A model generated the notes under the pieces. The model made no database searches and was not told the DNA's origin. It was given only the letters and a program-made list of their open reading frames with translations. 64,000 nucleotides of DNA from an uncultured Chloroflexia bacterium (lineage in GTDB: Bacteria; Chloroflexota; Limnocylindria; Limnocylindrales; CSP1-4), in NCBI GenBank assembly GCA_963813535.1, contig CAWEZH010000003.1, forward strand, positions 672,001-736,000, read 5' to 3'. This document shows, in pieces, positions 18,791-62,663 of this stretch (positions within the stretch are counted from its first letter, which is position 1; every line of letters starts with the position of its first letter). A program made the translations under genes and the position numbers.

Positions 18791-19489
18791 GTGAGTGCGA
18801 CCATCTTGATCGTCGAGGACGAGTACGCGGTCGCGCGAGGGATCCAGTACGCGCTCCAGCAGGAGGGGTACGACGTCGGCGTCGCCCGGTCCGGCGAGGA
18901 GGGGCTTGAGATCGCCACGCGTGAGGCACCGGACCTCGTGGTGCTCGACGTCCGCCTGCCCGGCATCGACGGCTTCGAGGTGCTTCGTCGCATCCGTGCA
19001 GCGAGCGGCAAGATGCCGATCCTCGTCCTGACCGCCCGCGACGACGAGGTCGACAAGGTCATCGGCCTCGAGCTGGGTGCGGACGACTACCTGACCAAGC
19101 CCTACAGCCTGCGCGAGCTGCTGAGCCGCATCAAGGCGCTGCTCCGGCGGTCGTACGGCGACCTGGCCGATGCGGCGGGCGGCCGGGTGCTCCGCCATCG
19201 CGATCTCATCATCGATCTCGAGCGGCGTCGCGTGCAGCGCGGTGACCGGCGGATCAGTCTCACCCCGACCGAGTTCGAGATCCTCCGCCACTTGGCCTCA
19301 CGACCCGGACGCGTGTACACGCGCTCCGAGCTGCTCGAGCTCCTGCGCGACTACGAGGCGCTCGACCAGGACGAGAAGACGATCAACGTCCACGTCAGCC
19401 ACCTCCGCGAGAAGATCGAGGACGATCCGGCGACACCGGCGTTCGTCCTGACCGTGCGGGGCGTCGGGTACGCCTTCGCAGAACGCTGA
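18791..19489 (+). CDS. OmpR/PhoB-family response regulator
   Basis: ILIVEDE..LDVRLP..GADDYLTKP..LTPTEF..TVRGVGY. Confidence 0.95.
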   Translation: MSATILIVEDEYAVARGIQYALQQEGYDVGVARSGEEGLEIATREAPDLVVLDVRLPGIDGFEVLRRIRAASGKMPILVLTARDDEVDKVIGLELGADDYLTKPYSLRELLSRIKALLRRSYGDLADAAGGRVLRHRDLIIDLERRRVQRGDRRISLTPTEFEILRHLASRPGRVYTRSELLELLRDYEALDQDEKTINVHVSHLREKIEDDPATPAFVLTVRGVGYAFAER

Positions 19490-19496
19490 CCGGCCG

Positions 19497-21203
19497 GTGA
19501 TCCGGCGGATCCCCTGGCTGCGCCGCATCCGGCGGCTGATGCCGCGCACGTTCCAGGCGCGGCTGAGCGTGGCCTTCGTCATGGTCATCGCGCTCACCCT
19601 CGGGTTGGTCTCCGTGGTCGTCATCAACCGGCTCGACGACTACTTCACGAGGCAGCAGCGGACCGACCTCGAGGAGCGCCATGCCACCGTCAGGGCCTTC
19701 GTCGAATCGATCGCCGACACGTACTCGGGCGGCCGGCCGGTCGTGAACGTCGATGGGGTGGTCAGCCCGCGCGTCCTGAACGCGCTCGAGACCGACCTCG
19801 TGCGGAACGTCATCGCCGACCAGATCGCCCAGGCCGACGTCATCGTTCGCTTCGGCGTGACGACCACGGGATCGGGCGATCCGCAGTTCGTGCCCGCCTC
19901 GAACGGCACCGTGGTCATGACGCGTCAGGCGCCACCCGCCCCGGGACAGGCCCGCGAACGGACGTCGGTGACCGGCTGGGGGGCGGGTGGCGATGCGGGC
20001 CGCCAGTACACGATGGAGATCACCCTCGCCGACCCATACACGTATCGGGCAACGGCGATCAACAACGTCACCAGCCTGCTGCTCGCCATCGCTCTGCTCG
20101 CCCTCGGGCTTGCCGTCGTGGTCTCGGCGGCGCTCGCCCGGCGCTTCACGACGCCCATCCGCCAGCTCACCGACGCCTCCCGCGGGCTCGCGGAAGGTGA
20201 TCTGACACGTCGCGTGCCGGCGGCGCAGCTCCGTGAAGGGTCCTCGGAGCTCGGCGAACTGGCGGTCCAGTTCAACACCATGGCCGACCGGCTGGCCGAG
20301 AGCGTCGAGCTGATCCGGCGGGACCGCGACCGGAGCCGTGACTTCCTGGCGGACGTGTCGCACGAGCTCAGGACCCCGCTCGCAGCGCTGCGGACCTTCA
20401 ATCAGCTGCTGATGGAACAGGCGGGGAACGATCCCGAAGCGCGCGCCGAGTTCCTCGAATCGAGCCAGGGCCAGATCGAGCGCCTGGACTGGCTTGCGCA
20501 GAACCTGCTCGAGCTGTCCAAGCTCGATTCCGGGCTGGTGCTCCTCGACCTTCGACCCGATGACCTGCGGGCCGCCGTCGAATCGGCGACCCACCAGCAC
20601 GACGCGCTCGCGCAGCGACGTGGCGTGACCGTCGAGCTGGACCTGCCGAGCCGGCCGGTCCGGATCCGGCACGACCCGCCACGCATCGGCCAGGTGGTCG
20701 CGAACCTCGTAGGCAACGCGGTCAAGTTCACGCCACGCGGCGGCGCCGTGCGGGTGTCCGTCGAGCCGACCCCAGATGGGGCTCGGGTCGACGTCGTCGA
20801 CACCGGCGTCGGCATCGACCCCAACGAGCTGCCCCACATCTTCGAGCGGTTCTACCGCGGCTCGCGCGCCAACGAGGCGCGCGGTTCGGGCAGCGGGCTC
20901 GGCCTCGCGATCGTTCGCTCGATCGTCGACATCCACGGCGGGACGGTGACCGTGGAGAGCGGGCCGGGCAGCGGGAGCCGGTTCACCGTCCGGCTGCCGC
21001 AGGATCCGAGGAACGTCGCCGGTACCCCCGCAGCGGAACAGGCCGCCGTCGCGTCCGCCGCGGAAGGCACGCGCCGGATCGCCGCGGCCGGTGCGGCGGA
21101 GGATCAGGATGGGCCCTCAGACGCGTCTCACGAAGACGAGCGCATCGTGACGGAAACTTCACCGTCCGATGCGCCCCATGTGAATCCCGCTTCGGCACCG
21201 TAA
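19497..21203 (+). CDS. HAMP sensor histidine kinase
   Basis: Two TMs, HAMP, DVSHELRTPL, NLVGNAVKF, DTGVG, GSGLGL. Confidence 0.95.
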   Translation: MIRRIPWLRRIRRLMPRTFQARLSVAFVMVIALTLGLVSVVVINRLDDYFTRQQRTDLEERHATVRAFVESIADTYSGGRPVVNVDGVVSPRVLNALETDLVRNVIADQIAQADVIVRFGVTTTGSGDPQFVPASNGTVVMTRQAPPAPGQARERTSVTGWGAGGDAGRQYTMEITLADPYTYRATAINNVTSLLLAIALLALGLAVVVSAALARRFTTPIRQLTDASRGLAEGDLTRRVPAAQLREGSSELGELAVQFNTMADRLAESVELIRRDRDRSRDFLADVSHELRTPLAALRTFNQLLMEQAGNDPEARAEFLESSQGQIERLDWLAQNLLELSKLDSGLVLLDLRPDDLRAAVESATHQHDALAQRRGVTVELDLPSRPVRIRHDPPRIGQVVANLVGNAVKFTPRGGAVRVSVEPTPDGARVDVVDTGVGIDPNELPHIFERFYRGSRANEARGSGSGLGLAIVRSIVDIHGGTVTVESGPGSGSRFTVRLPQDPRNVAGTPAAEQAAVASAAEGTRRIAAAGAAEDQDGPSDASHEDERIVTETSPSDAPHVNPASAP

Positions 21204-21274
21204 GAGGCGACGGCGTTCCCCGACTGGCCGCTCACCGACCGGGGGGACGCCGGACCTGAGGAATACGACGACCC

Positions 21275-22657
21275 ATGAGTGACTCCCGATCCGACGATCC
21301 CGATATGACCACGCGCCACCAGGCTCCGACCGAGCCCCTGCGAGAACCGGTGATCCGCACCTCCGGCGAAGGCGAGCGCTACACGCCGCCGGCGGAACCA
21401 CGTCCCGACTGGACGCGCCAGGACGCCGCACCCGTCGCGGCGCCCACCCCGGAGCGCTGGTATGAGCCGGCCCCGACCGTCCCGGCCGCACCCGTGACCG
21501 AGAGCGCCGTTCGCGGCGCCCGAAGCGGTCGCGGCACCATGGGCACGGTCCTTGGCGCGGCGCTGCTCTCCGCCGTGCTCGCATCGGGCGGCACGGTGGT
21601 GGCGCTCAACGCATCCGGCGCGCTGGATCGACCGGCGACGACCTCGACCGCGCCGACCGGGACCACCGTCGGTGCCAACAACCAGCCGGTGAACATCGAC
21701 GAGTCCTCTGCGACCATCCAGGTGGCCGCCAAGGCCAGCCCCGCCGTCGTTCGGATCACGGTCAACGGCAGCGTCGACACGTCGCAGGGGATCATCCCGG
21801 AGACCGGTGTGGGCTCAGGCGTGATCTACGACTCCGGCGGCTGGATCCTGACCAACCGCCACGTCGTGGACGGCAGCGACCAGCTCTCGGTCGAGCTCAA
21901 CGACGGCCGCGTGTTCGAGGGTCGCGTGTACGGCATCGACACCCTGACAGACCTGGCGATCGTCAAGATCGAGGGCACCGACCTGCCGGTCGCCCAACTG
22001 GGGCGCTCGAGCGAGCTCAAGGTGGGGCAGCTGGTCGTGGCGATCGGCAGTCCGCTGGGCACGTACTCGAACTCCGTCACCAGTGGCATCGTGTCGGCCA
22101 AGGGCCGGACGATCACGACCGATGGCAACCAGAACCTCAACAACCTGATCCAGACCGATGCGGCGATCAACCCGGGCAACTCGGGCGGTCCGCTGCTCGA
22201 CGCCGGCGCCAACGTGGTCGGCATCAACACCGCCATCGCCGCCGACTCGAACGGCATCGGCTTCGCCATCCCGATCGATATCGCCCGGCCGATCATGGAG
22301 CAGGCCGTGGCCGGCAAGGACCTCGCCCGACCGTACATGGGCGTCGTCTACCGGCCGATCGACCGCCAGTTCGCGGACGCCAACAACCTTCCCGTGAACG
22401 AGGGTGCGCTCATCCAGCGTGGCGCCGGCGGCAGCGCGACCAGCCCCGCCGTCGTGTCCGACAGTCCGGCCGACCAGGCCGGCCTGCGAGAGGGCGACAT
22501 CATCGTGAAGGTCAACGACCAGTCGATCGATGGCGACCATCCGCTCGATGCGACGCTCAGCGAGTACGCACCCGGCGACAACGTGACGATCGAACTGCTC
22601 CGGGATGGCCAGTCGTCGACGGTCCAGTTGCAGCTGGGAACCCGCCCGGCCAACTGA
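21275..22657 (+). CDS. htrA: HtrA/DegP-family serine protease with PDZ
   Basis: GSGV, TNRHV, DLAIV, QTDAAINPGNSGGPL; PDZ domain. Confidence 0.93.
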   Translation: MSDSRSDDPDMTTRHQAPTEPLREPVIRTSGEGERYTPPAEPRPDWTRQDAAPVAAPTPERWYEPAPTVPAAPVTESAVRGARSGRGTMGTVLGAALLSAVLASGGTVVALNASGALDRPATTSTAPTGTTVGANNQPVNIDESSATIQVAAKASPAVVRITVNGSVDTSQGIIPETGVGSGVIYDSGGWILTNRHVVDGSDQLSVELNDGRVFEGRVYGIDTLTDLAIVKIEGTDLPVAQLGRSSELKVGQLVVAIGSPLGTYSNSVTSGIVSAKGRTITTDGNQNLNNLIQTDAAINPGNSGGPLLDAGANVVGINTAIAADSNGIGFAIPIDIARPIMEQAVAGKDLARPYMGVVYRPIDRQFADANNLPVNEGALIQRGAGGSATSPAVVSDSPADQAGLREGDIIVKVNDQSIDGDHPLDATLSEYAPGDNVTIELLRDGQSSTVQLQLGTRPAN

Positions 22658-23919: not shown

Positions 23920-25256
23920 GAGACCGGCGGGTCGCGCAGTTCCGGATCGTCGACCAGGTGGCCGCGGATCGCGCCGACCAGGTAGAGCGACCCGGCCACG
24001 ACCGTCGGCCCACCCCCGCGCCGTGCCCGGTCGAGGGCAGCGATCGGGTCGGGTTCGGCGACGACCTCCGCGATCGGTGATGTCGTTCGCCGCCAACGGG
24101 CCGCGAGCTCGTCGGCTGGCATCGCGCGCGCGGCGTCCACGCTCGTCGCGATGACGGTCGCACCCCCGAGTGAGGACGAGGCTGCCAGGGCGGCGATGAT
24201 GCCGTCCACGTCCTTGTCCGCCATGGCGCCGACCACGAGCGTTAGCGGTCCCGGCGCCAGGTGCGGGCGCAGATCATCGAGTGCTTCGGCGAGCGCGGCC
24301 GCGCCGGCCGGGTTGTGGGCGCCGTCGAGCAGGATCTCAGCGCCGTCGACCGTCAACAGCTCGAGCCGACCCGGCCAGACCGCCGTCTCATAGCCGCGGC
24401 GCCGGGCGTCTTCGTCAGCCGTCGCGATACCCGCCGCGTCGAGGGCATCGAGGACCGCGTCGGCGACCGCGACGTTGGCGGCCTGGTGACGACCCCGGAG
24501 TCCGACGCGGGTCGGCCCCAGGCGGGGCAACTCGACGGTCAAGCCATCGCGGTCCCAGCCCAGGAGCGGCGCGGTCCCCACCTCCGCAAGCGGCGCCCCC
24601 ACTCGTCTCGCTCGGCGGCGGATGATCGCCAGCGCCTCGCCGTCCGCGCCGGTCACCGCGATGTCCCCACGCTCGATGATGGCGGCCTTCTCCCGGGCGA
24701 TCGCTGCGATCGTCGACCCCAACCGGTCGGTGTGATCCAGGGCCACGTTGGTCACCGCGGCGACGCCGCCATCCCAGGCGTGTGTCGCGTCGAGCCTGCC
24801 ACCCAGCCCGACCTCGACGAGGGCGACGTCGATCCCGGATTCGGCGAAGTGGCGGAACACCAACGCCGTGAGGAGCTCGAACTCCGTTGGTTCATCGTGG
24901 CGACGTGCGACCCGGTCTGCGACAGCGAGGACGGCTTCGACGTGCCGTGTGAAGTCGTCGATGCCGATCGGGTGGCCGTCGATGACGACCCGCTCGCGAT
25001 ACGACACGAGGTGCGGCTTCGGCGTCTCGCCGACGCGGAGACCCGCGGCCCGCAAGACGCTGCCGGCCAGGGCCAGGACGCTGCCCTTGCCGTTCGTCCC
25101 GGCCACGAGCGCACCGCGAACGGCCAGTTGCGGGTCGCCGAGCGCCGCCAGCAGCGCACGTGTCCGCCCGAGCCCGAGCCGGATCCCGAACCGACCGCGC
25201 GCAGCGAGCGCGGCGAGAGCTTCGTGATAGTCGGTCGACGGCGCCGAGGCGGTCAC
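23916..25256 (-). CDS. folC: Folylpolyglutamate synthase/dihydrofolate synthase
   Basis: VAGTNGKGS, PHL..YRER, EVGLGGRLDAT, WPGRLE, LDGAHNP, GSLYLVG. Confidence 0.95.
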   Translation of the reverse strand: MTASAPSTDYHEALAALAARGRFGIRLGLGRTRALLAALGDPQLAVRGALVAGTNGKGSVLALAGSVLRAAGLRVGETPKPHLVSYRERVVIDGHPIGIDDFTRHVEAVLAVADRVARRHDEPTEFELLTALVFRHFAESGIDVALVEVGLGGRLDATHAWDGGVAAVTNVALDHTDRLGSTIAAIAREKAAIIERGDIAVTGADGEALAIIRRRARRVGAPLAEVGTAPLLGWDRDGLTVELPRLGPTRVGLRGRHQAANVAVADAVLDALDAAGIATADEDARRRGYETAVWPGRLELLTVDGAEILLDGAHNPAGAAALAEALDDLRPHLAPGPLTLVVGAMADKDVDGIIAALAASSSLGGATVIATSVDAARAMPADELAARWRRTTSPIAEVVAEPDPIAALDRARRGGGPTVVAGSLYLVGAIRGHLVDDPELRDPPVS

Positions 25257-25711
25257 TCGCGCGTCAGTTCGTCCTCGTAGAAGACGCACTGGTTGAAGCG
25301 CGGCGTCAGGCACACGTCGTTGACGTACCCCTGATCGAGGTGGACACCGCCGCGGAGCTGGCAACGCGACACGTTCGTGTCCTGCCGGATCAGCGCCTTG
25401 AGCAGATGCGGTGCCTGGATGGGGATCGCGCCGCGCGAACCCGTCATGTAGAAGTGCGGGCACACGTTTCGACGCAGGCTCGGCAGTCCGAACCCGGGAT
25501 GGGCGCCCATCGGCAGGGTGACGGCGGGAGCCGGTCGTGCAGTGAGGGGCGAGGGCGTGACCCGGGCGATCGGCCCCAGACCGAACGCTGGACGACCGGA
25601 GGCGGCGCCCGACGATCCGGATCGGCCGGCTGGCGCCCCCGGACGACCCGGTCGATCGGGCTGCCCTGGGCGACTGATCGGTCGTCCCGTCCGTGGATCG
25701 CGAGCCTGCAC
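25253..25711 (-). CDS. Hypothetical protein with a C-terminal Cys-containing domain
   Basis: GGAGG RBS before GTG at 25711; CPHF..C..C..CVFY; stop overlaps the folC start (GTGA). Confidence 0.7.
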   Translation of the reverse strand: MQARDPRTGRPISRPGQPDRPGRPGAPAGRSGSSGAASGRPAFGLGPIARVTPSPLTARPAPAVTLPMGAHPGFGLPSLRRNVCPHFYMTGSRGAIPIQAPHLLKALIRQDTNVSRCQLRGGVHLDQGYVNDVCLTPRFNQCVFYEDELTRE

Positions 25712-25856
25712 GCAACCTCCATCCTGCGCGCACCGACATCGGACACGCGCGACCGGGCCAGAGTACAACGCACCGCCACGCTCCGACATCGCGTGCGGAA
25801 GTGCCGACGAGGCGTTCCATCGTCCCGATGGCGAGGGCGTGCGACAATCGCCTCCG

Positions 25857-36911: not shown

Positions 36912-36988
36912 TGGTGCCCCCAAGGGGATTCGAACCCCTGATCTCCACCTTGAAAGGGTGGCGTCCTAGGCCTCTAGACGATGGGGGC
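36912..36988 (-). tRNA. tRNA-Glu (TTC)
   Basis: GCCCCCA..CCACC-CTTTCAA-GGTGG..GGTTCGAATCC..TGGGGGCACCA; CCA encoded. Confidence 0.97.
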
Positions 36989-53231: not shown

Positions 53232-54344
53232 TCAGCGAGCGCTGTCCCCCTTGCGAACCCGAGCTGGCGTCAGCACCAGCGCGGCGGTCAGCAGGCCGGC
53301 CATCCCGAGGAGGATGAGCCGCCAGGGGTCACCAGCGGGCGCCGAGGAGGCGACGCCCGTGGTGTCGGTGGCCGGCAGGGTTGCCCTCGAGGTCGCGGCC
53401 GGTGTACCGGTCGCTGGCCCGACGCCCCCCGTCGGCTCTTCTGCGGGGCTGTTGTTGACGATGACGATGGTGAGGCTGAGCTCCTGCTCGCCCTCGTTGG
53501 GCATGCACTCGACGAGCCCGCTCACATCCCAGATGCAGGTGAGCGACGGATCGACGTTCAGCTCGACGAGGATCGGCTCGCTGCCGTCGAAGCCAGCAGG
53601 CACGGTCGACTCGACGATCCAGTACATGCCCTCATCGAGCAGGTCCGTGTCGAGCAGGCCGCCGGTGGCCGCCGCGGGTCCGAACACCTTGGTGTCCGCG
53701 CCGGACTCGAAGACCTCGTCTCCATCGTCGGCCCAGACCTCGAACGACGCTCCGTCGAGGAGCACGTCGTCGGCCTCGGTCGCGGTTCCCTTGTCATCGA
53801 GCTTCGCGATCAGGATGCTCGCCTGATCGGTCTCCTCGGACGGCGGGGGCGTGGGCGTCGGGACGGGCGTGGGGGTCGGGGTCGGGACAGGTGTCGGGGT
53901 CGGCGTCGGGACAGGTGTCGGCGTAGGCGTCGGCACCGGTGTCGGCGTGGGCGTGGGCTGCACGCAGGCGCCGATCTGGAGCTCGAACTCCCTGGTCCAC
54001 CCGCGGTTGCCCGTCGGGTCGTCCCAGGCGGTGATCTCGACCGTCGCCGTGTGCGCCTGCGTCGCCGGCGTCACCGCGATGGTCTTCGAGAACGACGCAC
54101 CGAACGAGAACGGCGAACCCGCCACATCGACGTCGTCGATCGACACGTCGACCGAGTTCGTGCCATTGCTGTTGTACTGGGTGAGGTTGATGACCAGTCC
54201 GCCCTGGCAGGTGAGTGACACGTTGGGCGTGTGCGCCGAGACGGCCGTGGGCGCCAGGAGCGCGACGGCGGTCAGCGCGGCGACGGCCAGCCACGACACA
54301 CGTCGGGCCAGGCGCGAGCGGACACGCGCAGGAGCTGATGTCAT
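53232..54344 (-). CDS. Secreted Pro/Thr-rich surface protein with a prealbumin/SpaA-like domain and LPATD-TM-basic tail
   Basis: Signal peptide; PTPTPV repeats; IAKLD..LDGASFEV..GMYWIVESTVPAGF; TLPATDT..TM..RVRK. Confidence 0.8.
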   Translation of the reverse strand: MTSAPARVRSRLARRVSWLAVAALTAVALLAPTAVSAHTPNVSLTCQGGLVINLTQYNSNGTNSVDVSIDDVDVAGSPFSFGASFSKTIAVTPATQAHTATVEITAWDDPTGNRGWTREFELQIGACVQPTPTPTPVPTPTPTPVPTPTPTPVPTPTPTPVPTPTPPPSEETDQASILIAKLDDKGTATEADDVLLDGASFEVWADDGDEVFESGADTKVFGPAAATGGLLDTDLLDEGMYWIVESTVPAGFDGSEPILVELNVDPSLTCIWDVSGLVECMPNEGEQELSLTIVIVNNSPAEEPTGGVGPATGTPAATSRATLPATDTTGVASSAPAGDPWRLILLGMAGLLTAALVLTPARVRKGDSAR

Positions 54345-54610
54345 GTGACGGTTCCCCGAGCAGAGGCCGGAGCCTCGGTTGGATGGATCTCGCGTCGGTG
54401 GCTTCCCCCGGTGGTGTCCGTGCACCGGCGCGAGAGGCCGGATATTCCCATGAGGGTCCTGGCCGGTCTAGTACCTCTGGCGGCCGACCACCACACCAGT
54501 CCCTCCCCCACCGCCCAGGGGACGGCGAATTCGTTGCTGCCCAGCAACGAACGGTCCTGCCGGCGGCCTGGTACCTCCGGTGTCCGACCGACCCAAGTAC
54601 GATGCAGCGC

Positions 54611-56294
54611 GTGATCCCACCCGCGCTCCGCACCCAGATCCGCCGCGCCGTCCAGGACGCCTGGGAGCGCGCGATCGCGGAGGGTGCGCTCTCGACCCTC
54701 GATGACGCAGCACGTCCCGTCGTGGAGGTCGAACGACCGGCCAAACCGGAGCACGGGGACTTCGCGACGAACCTGGCGATGAAGCTCGCCCGACCGTACA
54801 GACGGGCGCCGCTCGAGCTCGCCACGTTGCTGGCGGCCAAGATGGTCCGAGACGGCTCCGCGCCGGCGGCGACGTCGCCGGTCGAAGCGGTCGAGGTCGC
54901 CCCGCCCGGCTTTCTCAACGTCCGCGTGCGCGCCGGGGCGCTCGAGGCCATGGTCGACGGCATCCTTGCCGAGCCCGATGCGTGGGGACACGTGGATGCG
55001 CTCTCGACGCGGTCGGTCAACGTCGAGTTCGTATCGGCCAACCCGACCGGGCCGCTGACCATCGGCAATGCCCGAGGCGCGTTCATCGGCGATCTGCTCA
55101 GCCGTGTGCTCGAGGCGGGCGGCCAGCGTGTGACGCGCGAGTACTACTTCAACGACTCAGGCGCGCAGATCGACAACCTCGGTGCGTCTGTCGTCGCCAT
55201 CCGGCGAGGCGATCCGATCCCGGAGGAGGGCTACCAGGGCGCGTATGTCAGCGACCTCGCCGCCGAGCGTGCCGGACGATGTGTGGGCTGCGGCCAACGC
55301 GTCGGGCGCCGATCCGGCAGCGGAGATCGGGCACTGGGCCGCGGGCGAGATCCGCGCCCAGATCGAAGCGAGCCTGGAACGGCTCGGTGTCCATTTCGAT
55401 GTCTGGACGAGCGAGGGCCGCTTGCACGCCGAGGGCTGGGTCGGGCGCGCCGTCGAGCGACTCCGCGAGCGTGGCCACGTCTACGAAGAGGACGAGGCGA
55501 CGTGGTTCCGATCGACCGCATTCGGGGACGACAAGGATCGGGTCATCTACCGGGCTGATGGCCGTCCGACCTACTTCGCGGCCGACATCGGCTACGTCAC
55601 CGAGAAGTTCAGCCGCGGGTTCGACCACCTCATCTACGTCTGGGGGGCGGATCACCACGGGACGGTCGCGCGGGTCCGCAATGCGGCCGAGGCGATGGGC
55701 TACGACCCCGCGGCTGTGCAGGTGCTTCTCTATTCATGGGTCCGCTTCGTGCGCGACGGCGTCGAGGTGTCGATGTCGAAGCGGGCGGGGGAGTTCATCA
55801 CCCTCGACGAACTGCTGGCCGAGGTCGGGGTCGACGCCGCTCGCTGGTTCTTCGCCTCACGCGCAGCCACGACAGCCATCGATTTCGACATCGAGCTTGC
55901 CAAGAAGCAGTCGAACGAGAACCCGGTCTTCTACGTGCAGTACGCACACGCCCGCATCGCATCGATCCTGCGCAAGGCCGCGGACGCCGGCCTGACGCCG
56001 GCCACGACCGTCGCCGGCACGCTGTCGACCGGGCCCGAGGCCGCCCTGGCGCGGGCCATCGTGCGTCTGCCCGAGGTCATCGAGGACGCCGTCGCCGACG
56101 AGGAGACCCACGGCATCACGGCCTACGCGACCGAGCTCGCGACGGCGTTCCATGCCTTCTACCGCGATGCCCGCGTCGTCGACCCGGACAACCCGGAGCG
56201 GTCGGCATCGCGCCTCGCACTCGCGCGTGCCGCACAGCTCACGCTCGCGCGCACGCTCGGGCTCCTCGGGATCTCGGCGCCCGAGTCGATGTGA
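54611..56294 (+). CDS. argS: Arginyl-tRNA synthetase (frameshift near 55265)
   Basis: HGDFATN, EFVSANPTGPL.IG, GDDKDRV, GADHHG, MSKRAG, YVQYAHAR. Confidence 0.95.
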
Positions 56295-56328: not shown

Positions 56329-57606
56329 CTAGCCCGCCAGACCGAGGACGCCGGCGACCTTCTGCAGGGCGGCGTCGTCGCTGCCGATGACCACCCAGCG
56401 GGTCGTGCCGCCGGCACCGGGCAGGACCGACCCCGGACCGCCGGCCTTCTCGACCGCGCTCTTGGCGGTGACCTCGAACTCGGCAGCGTCATCTTCGGTA
56501 TCCCACACCGTGTGCCAGGCGACCGCCCAGGCATCGCTGGGACCGCCAAGCAGCGTGATGCGGTCGCCGCCCCAACCGGCGGCGGCGTCGGTGGCAGCCG
56601 CGATCGTCCCCGATCCGAGCCAGATGGCCGTCTGGTGCTCGCCCATCGTCTCCTCGTCGACGACCGACCAGCCAGTGCCCATCTTGCTCGCCAGGTCGTC
56701 CGCAAGGTCGACCGCCATCGGCGCTTCCCGGCTCTGGTACTTCTCGGGGTGGAGGACCTGCTCGGTCGACTTTGGCGGGTCCCCGAACGCCGCGTCGACG
56801 GCCTCCCAGCCACCGGCCACCTGCATGCCGGCGACGAACTGGGTGCCCTGCAACGCAGAGAACATCAGTTGCGCGGCGACGATCGGTGGGATCTTGTCGA
56901 GGGCGGCCTGTGCCTCCGGGTCTGCCGAGGCCTCCAGCACTTCCGTTAGCTCCGCAGGCGTCAGGTTCTGCTGGAGCCAGTAGGTCATGAGCACGTACGC
57001 ATCGCCCTCCACGAGGGATTGACGCCCGAGCGCTTCGTCCGTCTGGTCGTCGAGTCCCTCGGTGATCGCCTCGAGGTCGTAGTTCTGGTCCTGGAGGGCG
57101 TGGTCGTACTCGTGTGAGTAGTAGACCTTCTCGACCGCTCCGACCCCACCCGCCTTCGACACGACGTAGAGCCGCTCCTCGACCGGGTCGTACAGGCCGG
57201 CGACCTGGCTCGACAGCAGCTCGATGTAGACGTCGGCGAGCTTGTCGTCCTTCGGCAGCAGCCCGAGTGCGTGGTACATGCGCTCGTCGGCGGCGACCTG
57301 GTCGGGCGGGTAGTCCTTTTGGAACGACGTGCGCAGCACCTCGGTCATCTCCTCGGGTGAGACGACGGTCGGTTCGACGGGCTTCTTTTCCTCGAGGCCG
57401 CGGATGGCCCGGACCTGCTCGTTGATCTCGGCGTACACGGTGGCGAGGTCCGGCGAGCCGGATGGGCTCGGCGTCGCGCCGGAGCCCGACGGTGTCGGCG
57501 GCGCGGAGGGACTGGCTGACGGGGATGGGGCGGCGTTGCCGCACGCCACGACGATGAGGGCGAGGACGGCGATCGACACGATCGACCGGGGAAAGATTCG
57601 ATCCAT
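56329..57606 (-). CDS. Lipoprotein with HExxH motif (putative zinc metallopeptidase-like surface protein)
   Basis: Lipobox VVAC; AGLYDP, HEYDHALQDQ, EGDA, PKSTEQVLHP, GWGGD. Confidence 0.8.
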   Translation of the reverse strand: MDRIFPRSIVSIAVLALIVVACGNAAPSPSASPSAPPTPSGSGATPSPSGSPDLATVYAEINEQVRAIRGLEEKKPVEPTVVSPEEMTEVLRTSFQKDYPPDQVAADERMYHALGLLPKDDKLADVYIELLSSQVAGLYDPVEERLYVVSKAGGVGAVEKVYYSHEYDHALQDQNYDLEAITEGLDDQTDEALGRQSLVEGDAYVLMTYWLQQNLTPAELTEVLEASADPEAQAALDKIPPIVAAQLMFSALQGTQFVAGMQVAGGWEAVDAAFGDPPKSTEQVLHPEKYQSREAPMAVDLADDLASKMGTGWSVVDEETMGEHQTAIWLGSGTIAAATDAAAGWGGDRITLLGGPSDAWAVAWHTVWDTEDDAAEFEVTAKSAVEKAGGPGSVLPGAGGTTRWVVIGSDDAALQKVAGVLGLAG

Positions 57607-57712
57607 GACCCGATCGTACACGCGGCCGAGATAGCGCCCGGACGCACGGTCGGTATCGCTTTCTTAACCGGTTGCCGTCTCGACCGTGAATCAGGGCGCC
57701 GTAGCGTAGCGA

Positions 57713-57791
57713 TCGGACGAACCCTCAGGGTTCCATCCTCCCTCCCTCCGACCGGGGGCGCCGATTGGGCAGGCGCTCCCGGTCTTTCTCT
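57713..57791 (+). ncRNA. Candidate sRNA with a C-rich anti-SD tract
   Basis: TCGACC/TAGCGT promoter-like hexamers, short hairpin, CCTCCCTCCCTCC, intrinsic terminator. Confidence 0.55.
57750..57791 (+). terminator. Intrinsic terminator
   Basis: GACCGGGGGCGCC-9nt-GGCGCTCCCGGTC followed by TTTCTCT. Confidence 0.8.
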
Positions 57792-57874
57792 GTCCGGCAT
57801 TTGCTCCACCGAGGTCCGAGGGGGAGCTCCGCGACCCCATCGGCCCGAGGTCCGCTGTGTCAGAATCGGGCCTC

Positions 57875-58555
57875 ATGGAACTGACCTGGTACGGCCGGAC
57901 GTGCGTCCGTCTGCGCGGCAAGGACGCCGTCGTCGTCGCCGACCCCTATCAATCCGTGGTCGGCCCGACCGGCCGCGGGATCACCGGCGACATCGTGACG
58001 TTCAGCCACCCCGATGACGCGCCCGTCGCTCGCGGCAAGCCCAAGGGCAAGCTGTCACGCGACGGGTCGACACTCATCCCCTCGAGCCTGGATGCGGCGT
58101 TCGTGCTCGACGGGCCCGGTGAATACGAGGTCAAGGAGGTGCTGGTCACCGGCGTCCGCACCTACCGCGACGACGCCAAGGGTGCCGAGCACGGCAAGGG
58201 CGTTTCGTTCGTCGTCGAGGTCGACGGGGTCCATACGATCCACCTCGGCGAGATCGGCCATCTCCTCTCGGAGGAGAAGCTCGGCGACATCGGCCAGGTT
58301 GATATCGCGTGCGTGCCCCTCGGGGGAACCCTCAGTCCGACCAAGGCCGCGGCACTGATGGCCCAGCTCGACCCCAAGATCGTCGTGCCCATGACCCTGT
58401 GCGACGACGACGCCGACTGCGCCGAGGCGCTCGCCAAGTTCTTCCACGAGATGGGCGCCGAGCCCGTCACGCAGCCGAAGCTGTCCGTGACGTCGTCGAG
58501 CCTGCCGGGGGAGACGATGACCGTCCTCCTGGAGTCGCGCGGCAAGCAGCCCTAG
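57875..58555 (+). CDS. MBL-fold hydrolase (Lactamase_B_3-like)
   Basis: LTWYGRTC, DPY, SH, DGPGEYEV, HLGE, PKIVVPM. Confidence 0.85.
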   Translation: MELTWYGRTCVRLRGKDAVVVADPYQSVVGPTGRGITGDIVTFSHPDDAPVARGKPKGKLSRDGSTLIPSSLDAAFVLDGPGEYEVKEVLVTGVRTYRDDAKGAEHGKGVSFVVEVDGVHTIHLGEIGHLLSEEKLGDIGQVDIACVPLGGTLSPTKAAALMAQLDPKIVVPMTLCDDDADCAEALAKFFHEMGAEPVTQPKLSVTSSSLPGETMTVLLESRGKQP

Positions 58556-58582: not shown

Positions 58583-59947
58583 TCAGGGCCGGTCGAGCAC
58601 CACGCGTCCGCGCTTGATGACGGTGCGGACGAGGTCGGCACCCGGGTGGTATGGGATCCGCTTGCTGGTCGGGACCCGCCAGATCACCAGGTCCGCGGCC
58701 TTGCCCGGTTCGATCGACCCGATCTCGTCCTCGAGGGCCAGCGCGCGGGCCGCGTTGATGGTCACGGCCGCGAGGGCTTCGTCGGGGGTCATGCGCAGGT
58801 TGACGCAGGCGAACGACATCGCAAGGGTCAGGTTCGGTGTCGGCGACGTCCCGGGGTTGAAGTCCGACCCGATGGCGACCGGGACGCCCGCCTCGATGAA
58901 CGCCCGAGCCGGCGCGTGGTGATCCTTCATCAGGAACCACGTCGTGACCGGCAGGAGGGTCGCGACCACAGGATCGTCGGCATCCGCGGCGGCGCCCATC
59001 GCCGCGATCCCCTCGAGCGACGGGGAGGCGAGGTGGTCGGCCGAGGCCGCCCCGATCTCCGCCGCGAGCTCGGCGCCGCCGGACGGTGCCAGCTCGTCGG
59101 CATGCAGTCGAGGCAACAGCCCATAGGCGCGGGCCGCCTCGAGGATGCGTCGCGAATGGTCGGCGCTGAAGACGCCCTCCTCGCAGAAGACGTCCGCGAA
59201 CCGCGCTCGACCATGGGCGGCGATGCCCGGCAGCTGTTCGTCGAGCAGGTGCCGGATATAGGCGTCGACGCCGTCCGGGCGCGATCGGAACTCGGGCGGC
59301 ACGGCATGGGCACCCAGCCACGTCGGGACGACCTCGATGGGGCCCTCTCGCCCGAGCCGGTAGGCGACCTCGATGAGCCGGAGCTCCGTCTCCAGGTCGA
59401 GGCCGTACCCGGACTTCGCCTCCACCGTGGTGACGCCGTGGGTGAGCATCTCGTCGAGCCAGCGCCGGCCATGGATCAACAGATCGGATTCCGATGCGGC
59501 GCGGGTCGCCGCGACGGTCGACAGGATCCCGCCGCCCGCCGCGAGGATGTCGAGATATGACGCCCCCTGCTGGCGGAGGACCAACTCGTCCTCGCGGGAC
59601 CCCGCGAAGAGCAGATGGGTGTGCGGGTCGATCAGGCCGGGTGTCACCGATCCACCGGCTGCGTCGACCCGTGCGAACCGGGCGAGCGGCAGGCCATCCG
59701 CCTCGAGCTCGGCCTCCACGCCGTCTCGCGGGCCGACGGCGGCGATGCGCCCCTCCCAGACGGCGACGACGGGTGCATCGGGCGATGCCGGGTCCTCGGC
59801 GGGCAACCGCGCCACATCGCCCTGCAACGGTCCGCGGCGGATCCCGCCGGCGAGGGTGACGACCTCGCTTGCCCCGACGATGAGCAGACCGGGCGTGACC
59901 TCGCCCGTCCGCCCGCCTTCGATGACGCGGAACGGACCGCCGCTCAT
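58583..59947 (-). CDS. hutI: Imidazolonepropionase
   Basis: PGLIDPHTH, EAKSGYGL, DVFCE, HADE, SDFNPG. Confidence 0.95.
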   Translation of the reverse strand: MSGGPFRVIEGGRTGEVTPGLLIVGASEVVTLAGGIRRGPLQGDVARLPAEDPASPDAPVVAVWEGRIAAVGPRDGVEAELEADGLPLARFARVDAAGGSVTPGLIDPHTHLLFAGSREDELVLRQQGASYLDILAAGGGILSTVAATRAASESDLLIHGRRWLDEMLTHGVTTVEAKSGYGLDLETELRLIEVAYRLGREGPIEVVPTWLGAHAVPPEFRSRPDGVDAYIRHLLDEQLPGIAAHGRARFADVFCEEGVFSADHSRRILEAARAYGLLPRLHADELAPSGGAELAAEIGAASADHLASPSLEGIAAMGAAADADDPVVATLLPVTTWFLMKDHHAPARAFIEAGVPVAIGSDFNPGTSPTPNLTLAMSFACVNLRMTPDEALAAVTINAARALALEDEIGSIEPGKAADLVIWRVPTSKRIPYHPGADLVRTVIKRGRVVLDRP

Positions 59948-60948
59948 GACGATCCGGGGCCGTCGCCCGGGCTCGCGGTGCTCATGCCGGCCCGGGCAGC
60001 CTCGAGTCGTCGCTCGAGGATCTGCATCGGCGAGTGATCGCGGAGACGGATGTACTCGGCAGCGGCGGCAAGCCGTTCGTCGATGCCGCCAACGGCCTCG
60101 GCATGTGCGGCGATCGCCTCGAACGCCGCTTGCGGCGCCAGCCCGATGAGCTCCGACTCCGCCGGCCGGACGCCGTCCTCCGCGGCGAGCTCGCGCACGA
60201 CGTCCCAGACCAGCCACAGGGGGGTGACCTCGAAGTCGAGGAGGTTCATCGAGACCTGGGCACGGGGCGGATGGCCTCGTTCGGGCTCGTGGACCTCGAA
60301 GCCGTTCGCCTGGAGCTTCGGTAGTCCCCCGCCGGATTCGCGGACCCGGCGTGCGATCCTCTTGGCGAGATCGACATCGTCGGAGTCGAGGTTGATGTTG
60401 TAGGCGATGAGGAACGGGCGCGCGCCGACCGCTACAGCACCGGCGGATGGATGGAGTCGTGTCGGCCCGAAGTCCGGCTCGCGGCCGCGCTGACCGATCT
60501 CCTCCTTGAGCCCCTCGTACTGACCGCGCCGAACGTCGGCCAGGCGCTCGCGGTCGGGGCGTCGAGCGGCGCGAGCGTAGAGGTAGACGGGCAGGTCGAA
60601 GCGCGTCGCGACCCGCTCCCCGAAGCGTCGGGCGAGGTCGATCACCTCGTCCATGGTCGACGACCCGAGCGGGATGAAGGGGATGACGTCGACCGAGCCG
60701 ATGCGCGGATGCTCACCCTCGTGGGCGTCCATGTCGATCTCGTGGATCGCCCCTGCAAGGAGCCGCTCGAGGGCCTCGCTGACCGCGGCGTCGTCGCCGG
60801 CCATCGTGAAGACCGAGCGGTTGTGGCTCGCGTCGCTCGTGCGGTCGAGGAGGGCGACCTCGGGGACGGACGTGATCGCATCGGCAAGCCGGTCGACCAC
60901 GTCGATCCGGCGCCCCTCGGAGACGTTCGGGACCGACTCGACGAGCAC
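59944..60948 (-). CDS. ftcD: Glutamate formimidoyltransferase
   Basis: ESVPNVSEGR, HNRSV, HPRIGSVDV, LIAYNINL, QVSMNL, SELIGL. Confidence 0.9.
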   Translation of the reverse strand: MLVESVPNVSEGRRIDVVDRLADAITSVPEVALLDRTSDASHNRSVFTMAGDDAAVSEALERLLAGAIHEIDMDAHEGEHPRIGSVDVIPFIPLGSSTMDEVIDLARRFGERVATRFDLPVYLYARAARRPDRERLADVRRGQYEGLKEEIGQRGREPDFGPTRLHPSAGAVAVGARPFLIAYNINLDSDDVDLAKRIARRVRESGGGLPKLQANGFEVHEPERGHPPRAQVSMNLLDFEVTPLWLVWDVVRELAAEDGVRPAESELIGLAPQAAFEAIAAHAEAVGGIDERLAAAAEYIRLRDHSPMQILERRLEAARAGMSTASPGDGPGSS

Positions 60949-60992
60949 CCGCTGATGCTACTCGGCGCCGCGCGCCGCCGATGGCCGACCGC

Positions 60993-62663
60993 TCAGCGGT
61001 CCTCGAGCATCGGGACGTGGACGCCTCGCTCACGGGCGACCTCGATCGCCCGGTCATAGCCGGCATCGACGTGGCGCAGGACCCCCATCGCCGGATCCGT
61101 CGTGAGCACGCGCTCGAGCTTCTGGGCCGCGAGCGGGGAGCCATCCGCGACCACGACCATGCCGGCATGCTGCGAGAAGCCGATGCCCACGCCGCCACCG
61201 TGGTGGATCGACACCCATGACGCTCCGGCGGCCGTGTTGACGAGCGCGTTCAGCAGCGGCCAGTCAGCCACGGCGTCGGTGCCATCCGCCATCGCCTCGG
61301 TCTCCCGGTTCGGCGAGGCGACCGAACCGGCGTCGAGATGGTCGCGGCCGATGACGATCGGAGCGCTGACCTCACCCGATGCGACGAGCTCGTTGAAGGC
61401 TAGGCCGGCGCGTGACCGTTCCCCATACCCGAGCCAGCAGATGCGGGCCGGCAGGCCCTGGAACGGGACACGGGCCTCGGCAATCTCGATCCAGCGCCGG
61501 AGCCCGGCATCGTCGGGGAAGAGCTCGAGGACGGCGCGGTCGGTCCGAGCGATGTCGGCAGGATCGCCCGACAGCGCCGCCCAGCGGAACGGGCCCCGGC
61601 CCTCGCAGAACTGCGGCCGGATGAACGCCGGGACGAACCCCGGGTAGTCGAACGCGTCGGCGACGCCAGCGTCCTTGGCTTGCGCCCTGAGGTTGTTGCC
61701 GTAGTCGAAGACGATCGCGCCTGCACGCTGGAACTCGAGCATCGCCCTGACATGGGCGGCCATCGCGGCCGTCGACCGTCGCTCGTACTCGGCCGGCTGG
61801 GTCCTGCGGAGGGTGAGCGCGTCATCCAGCGAGATCTCGGCCGGCACGTAGCCGGCCAGCGCGTCATGGGCGGATGTCTGGTCCGTCACCAGGTCGAAGC
61901 GCTCCCCCGCCGCGGCCCAGCCAGGTTCGATCTCGGCGGCATTGCCGACCAGCGCGATCGAAGTCGCTTCACCTGCGCCGGCGCCGGCACGCGCCCAGGC
62001 GAGGGCCTCCGCCGGCTCGTGCGTCAACCGGTCGACGTACCCGATGTCGAGGCGGCGCTGGGCCCGTGCCGGGTCGACCTCGATGGCGAGACACACCCCC
62101 TCGTTCATCGTCACGGCCAGGGGCTGTGCACCGCCCATCCCGCCCAGTCCCGCCGTGAGGGTGATCGTCCCGCGCAGTGTCCCACCGAAATGCTGGCGAG
62201 CGGCCTCGGCGAAGGTCTCGTACGTTCCCTGCAGGATCCCCTGGGTCCCGATGTAGATCCAGGAGCCGGCGGTCATCTGGCCGTACATCATCAAGCCGGC
62301 GCGCTCGAGCTCGCGGAAATGCTCCCAGGTCGCCCAGCGACCGACGAGGTTCGAGTTGGCGATCAGGACCCGGGGTGCCCACTCGTGGGTGCGGAGCACC
62401 CCGACGGGCTTGCCGCTCTGGACGAGTAGCGTCTCGTCGTCGGCAAGGACCCGCAACTCGCGGACGATGGCGTCGAACGCGTCCCAGTCGCGTGCCGCCT
62501 TGCCGGTCCCGCCATAGACGACGAGGTGGTCGGGGTCCTCGGCGACCTCCGGGTCGAGGTTGTTCATCAGCATCCGCAACGCGGCTTCCTGCGCCCAACC
62601 ACGGCACGTCAACTCGGGGCCACGCGGCGCGCGGACGGGACGCGGGCCGGCGCTGGTCGTCAT
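60993..62663 (-). CDS. hutU: Urocanate hydratase
   Basis: [42 protein letters not shown]. Confidence 0.97.

Follow-up and report, generated by a model that had tools for sequence, protein, structure and literature searches.

The small RNA gene and its surroundings

The locus lies in a 64-kb stretch of DNA (hereafter the window) from a CSP1-4 genome (Limnocylindrales, Chloroflexota) that is 93% complete. The intergenic region is flanked by a leaderless minus-strand gene, with a -10 of its own, for a DUF8230-like lipoprotein (56329..57606), which carries an HExxH motif and has no Pfam hit (Atlas clusters 0.97–0.98), and by a leaderless plus-strand gene for an MBL-fold hydrolase (57875..58555) with its own -10 hexamer CAGAAT (57861–57866). 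The MBL gene is in view in 45 of 48 distinct genus loci, and in 8 of these 45 it stands inverted between the RNA and hutI, a small local inversion. Further upstream, at ~54600–56294 on the plus strand, is a gene that we take from its motifs to be arginyl-tRNA synthetase-like; it is split over two frames near 55260 (ORFs 54215–55558 and 55182–56294), possibly by an assembly error. Downstream, a histidine-utilisation cluster (58583–62663, minus strand) comprises an amidohydrolase, identified by Pfam, and what are presumably formiminotransferase and urocanase, named by sequence features. Two of its three genes look leaderless, with a -10 of their own.

The sequence between the flanking genes almost certainly contains a stand-alone, structured small RNA gene with its own promoter. 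The predicted RNA is ~77 nt long (57715..57791, plus strand), its start being placed at the conservation edge 7 nt past the -10 hexamer. The 5′ hairpin P1 (57715..57738) includes the hairpin GAACCC-TCA-GGGTTC, which begins at 57719; P1 varies freely among relatives in both loop and length. It is followed by the C-rich anti-Shine-Dalgarno (SD) tract CCUCCCUCCCUCC (57737..57749), of which positions 57739–57749 are predicted to be unpaired with a probability of ~0.9, and by the 3′ hairpin P2 (57750..57791), which has 13 base pairs and a weak U tail and is a probable intrinsic terminator according to a terminator scan. The P2 stem (57750–57784) is followed by TTTCTCT, and its loop GAUUGGGCA (57763..57771) is conserved, with the core GGGC(A/G). 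Consistent with a structured RNA, the 77-nt sequence folds at −40.9 kcal/mol (z −3.39) and none of 200 shuffles was equally stable, whereas a wider 122-nt stretch folds ordinarily (z −0.91). The motif GAAC..GTTC presumably resembles that of LexA; this reading was dropped because the spacer between the two halves varies in length.

The spaced pair TCGACC and TAGCGT, the first hairpin, the C-rich tract and the 3′ hairpin named in the initial annotation are all present. Its description of the C-rich stretch as unpaired applies to the linker but not to the CAUCC part, which is predicted to pair with the 5′ GGA in this genome, so that the exposed linker comprises 11 nt, UCCCUCCCUCC. Similarly, the terminator was called strong; this suits the stem but not the tail, in which the run of U is broken in this genome and replaced by a C-rich tail in the sister family described below.

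The Rfam search proposed in the initial annotation assigned the RNA to no family; the only gathering hit in the window was a tRNA gene (36915–36988, minus strand), and the RNA locus and seven homologous loci gave matches at chance E-values only. In particular, none of the Rfam models for csRNA, LhrC, RsaE, cuckoo and 6C matched. A 6S RNA match was likewise not found in this 93% complete genome, and in our judgement the RNA is too short and too differently built to be a 6S replacement. A literature search, covering few subscription journals, found no published description of the RNA and showed regulatory small RNAs to be almost undescribed in Chloroflexota. We consider it a previously undescribed RNA family.

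To follow the RNA across genomes, we used a covariance model (R2) and designated the families as follows: f1, the family of the source genome; f2, a streamlined sister family with genomes of 1.0–1.4 Mb; f4, a further RNA-bearing family of the class; f3 and f5, two other families searched. Limnocylindraceae has been described beside CSP1-4 (PMC13212565), and f2 fits that position, its taxonomy being inferred; the main text of PMC13212565 does not contain the term "small rna". R2 identified a single strong copy in the source genome and matched 104 of 108 f1 genomes and, at E 0.05, 1 of 42 f2 genomes; at the syntenic place, examined in 20 f2 genomes, weak R2 matches were present in 16. A pattern for the tract was present in 110 of the 131 genus genomes, and its reversed control in none. 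In the class sample, R2 matched 43/44 f1, 1/6 f2, 44/50 f4 (a tally that includes two unpublished genomes, used for no other result), 5/49 f3 and 0/1 f5 genomes. All 15 of the f4 matches examined were syntenic; the five f3 matches, from five genomes, were all non-syntenic and lacked the promoter. A phylum sample outside f1, f2 and f4 gave a match in 1 of 136 genomes, a plain terminator without the tract; a tract-plus-loop pattern gave 8 matches in five f3/f5 genomes against 12 in the control, and viral contigs gave 0 matches. A GTDB-wide pattern scan was too loose (at least 120 loci), and 80 of its loci were rescanned with R2; the five true RNAs among these 80 were all in Chloroflexi/Chloroflexia records. 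The comparison of relatives called for in the initial annotation thus found the RNA and its C-rich tract conserved across f1, f2 and f4.

Conservation is strongest in the tract and the P2 loop. Supporting the original proposal of a stand-alone small RNA with an exposed anti-SD tract, the core CTCCCTC is present in 128 of 130 homologous copies and CCTCCCTCC in 112 of 130; the loop core GGGC[AG] is kept in 129 of 130, in f1, f2 and f4 alike, though the stem beneath it is rewritten. Among 38 diverse f1 copies, 10 of the 13 P2 pairs show compensatory change and 100% of cells are paired, a level reached by 0/500 shuffles and compared with 38–53% in slid controls. A further alignment was left out of these values, as antisense partial matches and fitting to the model inflated its pair counts. 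P1 shows no covariation within the genus because seven of its eight pairs never vary. Across relatives the RNA measures 77–115 nt. One relative carries five tandem copies (3556699–3557694) with diverged C-rich tracts, four of which were seen to have their own promoter boxes, and two further relatives have two separate copies each. The f2 copies keep the promoter, the tract and the GGGCA loop, the tract being displaced to the loop of the 5′ hairpin; they carry three C-rich stretches. The lipoprotein gene is absent from the f2 locus, where the RNA directly follows the tRNA-synthetase gene. Retention of the RNA in genomes of 1.0–1.4 Mb that have lost the adjoining gene suggests a core function.

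The anti-Shine-Dalgarno tract and its candidate targets

By analogy with known C-rich small RNAs, the RNA probably acts by pairing with SD sequences. The 3′ end of 16S rRNA in this genome is GATCACCTCCTTT, GGAGG-type hexamers dominate upstream of gene starts, and the tract is the exact complement of this SD core, GGAGG. Gene starts (3045 genes) were called with a simple caller that itself used SD and -10 signals, and counts based on them are therefore approximate and partly circular. With this caller, 830 of 3045 genes have an SD match of at least 5 nt, and 670 of 3045 have a -10-like hexamer 5–9 nt before the start. The latter number, rough and without a chance control, agrees with the description of the genome as leaderless-rich in the initial annotation.

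Near the start, 43 of the 3045 genes have at least eight matches to the tract, two control sets giving 4 and 1; this excess is expected because SD sequences alone would produce it. A whole-genome duplex ranking yielded no outlier target. The tract pairs preferentially with mRNAs of exported proteins (odds ratio 2.07); this enrichment is equalled by 59 of 100 permuted C/U 13-mers, and a seed-specific preference was therefore rejected. Seed searches across the families found no recurring start with a long complement except that of acpP, in this genome and in one f2 genome. At least seven matches were present in 13/18 f1, 5/5 f2 and 0/7 f4 acpP orthologues, acpP having been selected for that trait. 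Likewise, acpP and rpsN rank at the top of the 14 genes with enough orthologues, having been selected for pairing, and the pairing is absent in f4. We regard the GGAGGGAG-led mRNAs acpP, rpsN and ftsA as the first target candidates.

Other pairings were set aside. The gene upstream of folC had been put forward as a target in the initial annotation; the AGGATGGA site does exist at 25725 (minus strand), but it is one of 42 such 8-mers in the genome, and the corresponding seed CCATCC, which is partly paired, is found in only 47 of 130 copies. That gene (~25253–25712, minus strand), a short ORF, has a stop codon that overlaps the start of folC, and our caller chose a later start for it. That the P2 loop pairs with gene starts, for instance GTGCCCAAT of corA, was considered and dropped, since TGCCCA at +1 was counted in 13 genes, fewer than the ~20 roughly expected. 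Pairing of GUUCCAU with the MBL start AUGGAAC was also rejected, as relatives with changed RNA letters show no covariation. In RNA-seq data from four of 24 runs with small shares, available as assembled contigs only, no short RNA was seen; one 270-nt contig covers the promoter and the 5′ part of the RNA, a pattern that DNA or read-through would also give.

Alternatively, a stress-induced RNA could act mainly through a protein, with the GGGC(A/G) loop, the UCCC repeats or both sequestering or guiding an RNA-binding protein such as KhpA/KhpB or a nuclease, and SD pairing being secondary. The near-universal loop core on a rewritten stem would suit such a role, as would the lack of a conserved mRNA target in the seed searches and the orthologue comparison and the presence of KhpA/B family genes in five of five genomes. 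Arguing against it, the tract complements the SD sequence exactly and is single-stranded wherever it sits, be it the linker, as in f1 and f4, or a hairpin loop, as in f2; one genus copy and one tandem paralogue lack the GGGCA loop; and UCCC motifs of known small RNAs pair with SD sequences (PMC4132741). We consider a mainly protein-mediated action unlikely, though worth keeping in view. Pairing with SD sequences, the reading we prefer, would have to proceed without Hfq or ProQ, neither of which was found in any of five genomes of the order.

Promoter boxes, htrA and the candidate regulator

The RNA promoter contains more than the hexamers described initially. A half-site (RTRTCG-like) and box 1, CTTTC-TTAACC (consensus C-TT[A/C]A[C/T]C; 57653..57669), are near-invariant in 46 genus sequences. 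Box 2, TGAATC (57687..57692), follows box 1 after 17 nt and is separated by 9 nt from the downstream -10 hexamer TAGCGT (57702..57707), which is conserved as TAnnnT, its T, A and last T being invariant in the 46 sequences. The weak hexamer TCGACC (57680..57685; TTGNCN in other genera), 16 nt from TAGCGT, is -35-like and may function as such. The layout CTTMAYC-17-TKMAY-9-[-10] is gap-free in 108 distinct promoter rows, one of them mis-registered. The upstream site CTTTCTTAA occurs once in the genome, and its f4 counterpart is a clear direct repeat, GTTCA(G/C)-GTTTC-TTAAG. The lipoprotein gene adjoins the same intergenic region as these boxes and might be co-regulated; its HEYDH sequence suggests a surface zinc peptidase.

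The boxes of the RNA promoter recur before htrA, tying the RNA to a regulator–kinase–htrA locus; the initial annotation had overlooked both the boxes and this link. Three consecutive plus-strand genes in the window (18791–22657) encode an OmpR/PhoB-family response regulator (18791..19489), which scores below the cut-off of every named family compared and is the candidate activator, a sensor histidine kinase (19497..21203) and, directly downstream, an HtrA/DegP-family serine protease (21305..22657, start codon approximate). The htrA promoter (21147..21201, plus strand) has the same layout as that of the RNA: GTGACG-GAAAC-TTCACC, 17 nt, TGAATC, 9 nt, CACCGT. In both promoters the boxes end 9–10 nt ahead of a weak -10 of the sigma-70 type. 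In a genome scan with a matrix built from the RNA promoter rows, the RNA ranked first, and weaker sites with intact layout lay before htrA and the gene for an S41 protease. Trained on the RNA alone, the matrix reached at least 12 bits upstream of 20 of 29 htrA orthologues, compared with 3 of 86 control windows, one of which lies only a little further upstream of an htrA and may hold its true site. Flexible box patterns, written after the matrix result on the htrA orthologues had been seen, matched 26 of 29 orthologues (one of 30 loci was too short) and none in the reverse-strand control. On a second htrA set, they matched 13/16 f4, 3/3 f2 and 0/11 f3/f5 loci (control 0/30). Collectively, these sites make it very likely, as far as sequence can tell, that the RNA and htrA are under one regulator.

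A refined matrix scored the RNA at 37.3, htrA at 33.3, secD at 27.2 and ctpA at 24.8 in this genome, the next site (21.6) being intragenic; secD and ctpA were absent from its training set. The leaderless secD-secF operon has a good box layout directly before it in this genome (C2:484092-484150). This site is not conserved, with one weak, misplaced match in 30 orthologous loci, and secD was rejected as a regulon member. The gene for the S41 C-terminal protease (ctpA) is preceded by the same layout (C2:1993241); of 30 loci only 7 have the site, three of them from one genome and some of them paralogues, and its conservation is largely confined to the genus and two other genera.

The adjoining regulator (18791–19489) appears likely to be the common one, an assignment that rests on adjacency and co-occurrence because several OmpR-type regulators exist. 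The kinase gene stands directly upstream of htrA in 15/16 f4, 3/3 f2 and 0/11 f3/f5 loci, and a reciprocal-best orthologue of the regulator is present in 11 of 12 f1/f2/f4 genomes and in 0 of 18 f3/f5 genomes. Indeed, the RNA, the boxes, the regulator and the kinase–htrA adjacency all occur in f1, f2 and f4 and were not found in f3/f5, a co-occurrence that represents one clade and not independent events. If another response regulator or an alternative sigma factor were in control, or if the boxes served repression, the RNA would still be an anti-SD RNA co-regulated with htrA. The genome offers other candidates, with 16 OmpR-type DNA-binding domains (5–6 in streamlined genomes); the regulator's own promoter has no consistent box (1 of 11 orthologues); and box 2 overlaps the spacer between -35 and -10, where repressors may also bind. 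On the other hand, the kinase directly precedes htrA in nearly all f1/f2/f4 loci, the regulator orthologue has the same range as the RNA, a repeat ending ~10 nt before the -10 has the geometry of the activator CiaR (PMC3091779), and the weak htrA -10 (CAnnnT) would fit an activator-dependent promoter. Control by such another factor, or repression, seems improbable to us.

It is highly improbable that the RNA serves the MBL hydrolase gene (57875) as a leader or attenuator, which the initial annotation had named in advance as the reading that would count against a separate RNA. In its favour, the RNA lies upstream on the same strand in f2, in f4 and, within the genus, in 37 of 45 loci, and the U tail is weak and missing in f2. 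Against it, the gene is inverted in the other 8 loci and 125–838 nt away in the 37, a leaderless -10 of its own is conserved in f1 and f2, and the RNA also has additional tandem copies. Equally improbable is the minus-strand mini-ORF (Met-Glu-Pro) offered initially as an alternative, or a purely DNA-level element, since GGAGG-ATG GAA CCC TGA is present here but the ATG is missing in 18 of 48 genus copies and the ORF runs from 3 to over 99 codons in the others, while G-U and compensatory pairs, the promoter and the U tail point to a plus-strand RNA.

The promoter boxes common to the RNA and htrA suggest that envelope stress probably induces the RNA, which would in turn block the ribosome-binding sites of mRNAs. 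The reading we favour overall, with some reserve, is a trans-acting small RNA through which a response to envelope or secretion stress exerts repression. The kinase would sense misfolded exported proteins or envelope damage, and the adjoining OmpR-family regulator would bind the boxes and switch on htrA, the RNA and, in some lineages, ctpA. The unpaired CCUCCCUCC of the RNA would then pair with GGAGG-type ribosome-binding sites and block 30S loading, and leaderless mRNAs would escape, having no such site before the start. The RNA is also a natural case in which to test discrimination between leadered and leaderless mRNAs by an anti-SD RNA. A broader proposal strikes us as rather unlikely: that the RNA, mimicking the 16S 3′ end throughout the lineage, is a general brake on SD-led translation, so that envelope stress shifts the cell to leaderless mRNAs, and that the GGGC loop docks an unknown chaperone or nuclease replacing Hfq. 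On this view, its retention together with the regulator in streamlined freshwater genomes of 1 Mb would mark its importance.

Relation to known systems

The closest parallels are found in Firmicutes. The csRNAs of the CiaRH–csRNA–htrA system of Streptococcus consist of two stem-loops separated by an unpaired anti-SD stretch; CiaR binds the repeat NTTAAG-N5-TTTAAG ~10 nt before the -10 and also controls htrA (PMC3091779), and streptococci lack Hfq (PMC4132741). Similarly, the Chloroflexota RNA has an unpaired anti-SD stretch between two stem-loops, and its promoter has a regulator site in common with htrA. The site differs from that of CiaR in sequence and spacing, with box 2 (TKMAY) 9 nt before the -10 and box 1 23 nt further up. 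Moreover, the RNA is mostly single copy whereas there are several csRNAs; the csRNA-type anti-start CAU beside the tract is found in under half of the copies (CCATCC in 47 of 130; CAC or CAA in some); and, unlike csRNAs, the RNA has a conserved G-rich 3′ loop and a high G+C host with many leaderless genes.

LhrC1–5 of Listeria monocytogenes, controlled by LisRK, are 111–114 nt long, with three redundant CU-rich/UCCC sites spread over both loops and the linker, and do not need Hfq; their single-stranded UCCC motifs pair with SD regions, and they are under envelope-stress two-component control (PMC4132741). The RNA described here shares the single-stranded UCCC, the occurrence of multiple copies, in one relative with five in tandem, and, in f2, three C-rich stretches. 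In contrast to LhrC, its UCCC lies in the linker only, its 3′ loop GAUUGGGCA is G-rich, and the f2 stretches are arranged differently. For the Chloroflexota RNA, csRNA- or LhrC-like control by a two-component system and stress is suggested by adjacency and co-occurrence. Our best reading, by analogy, is that it works like the CiaRH–csRNA and LisRK–LhrC modules while belonging to neither, judging from Rfam, box sequence and motif layout. The GGGC loop and the retention of the RNA in streamlined genomes are features that the known examples do not explain.

Pairs of a regulator and a kinase controlling HtrA proteases also include MprAB, which controls pepD. CssRS and CutRS are further such pairs (PMC12802291); the CutR motif TAWATAAA differs from the boxes found here, the regulator here falls below the named cut-offs, and the main text of PMC12802291 mentions no small RNA ("small rna", 0 occurrences). 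Our findings extend the design of an envelope-stress two-component system with HtrA and a C-rich small RNA beyond Firmicutes, to a distant lineage abundant in soil and freshwater. Because the RNA has a candidate regulator, a binding site and a co-regulated gene, experiments on its signal and mechanism need no culture of the host.

RsaE/RoxS of Firmicutes likewise direct a C-rich UCCC seed against G-rich ribosome-binding sites and are under two-component control. They are longer RNAs with several C-rich loops, and their regulon is redox-related and metabolic, whereas the RNA here is linked to htrA. The cuckoo/CcsR and 6C RNAs consist of repeated hairpins with C-rich anti-SD loops; the Chloroflexota RNA resembles them in its C-rich anti-SD motif, placed in a hairpin loop in f2, and differs in having a single tract, mostly in the linker.
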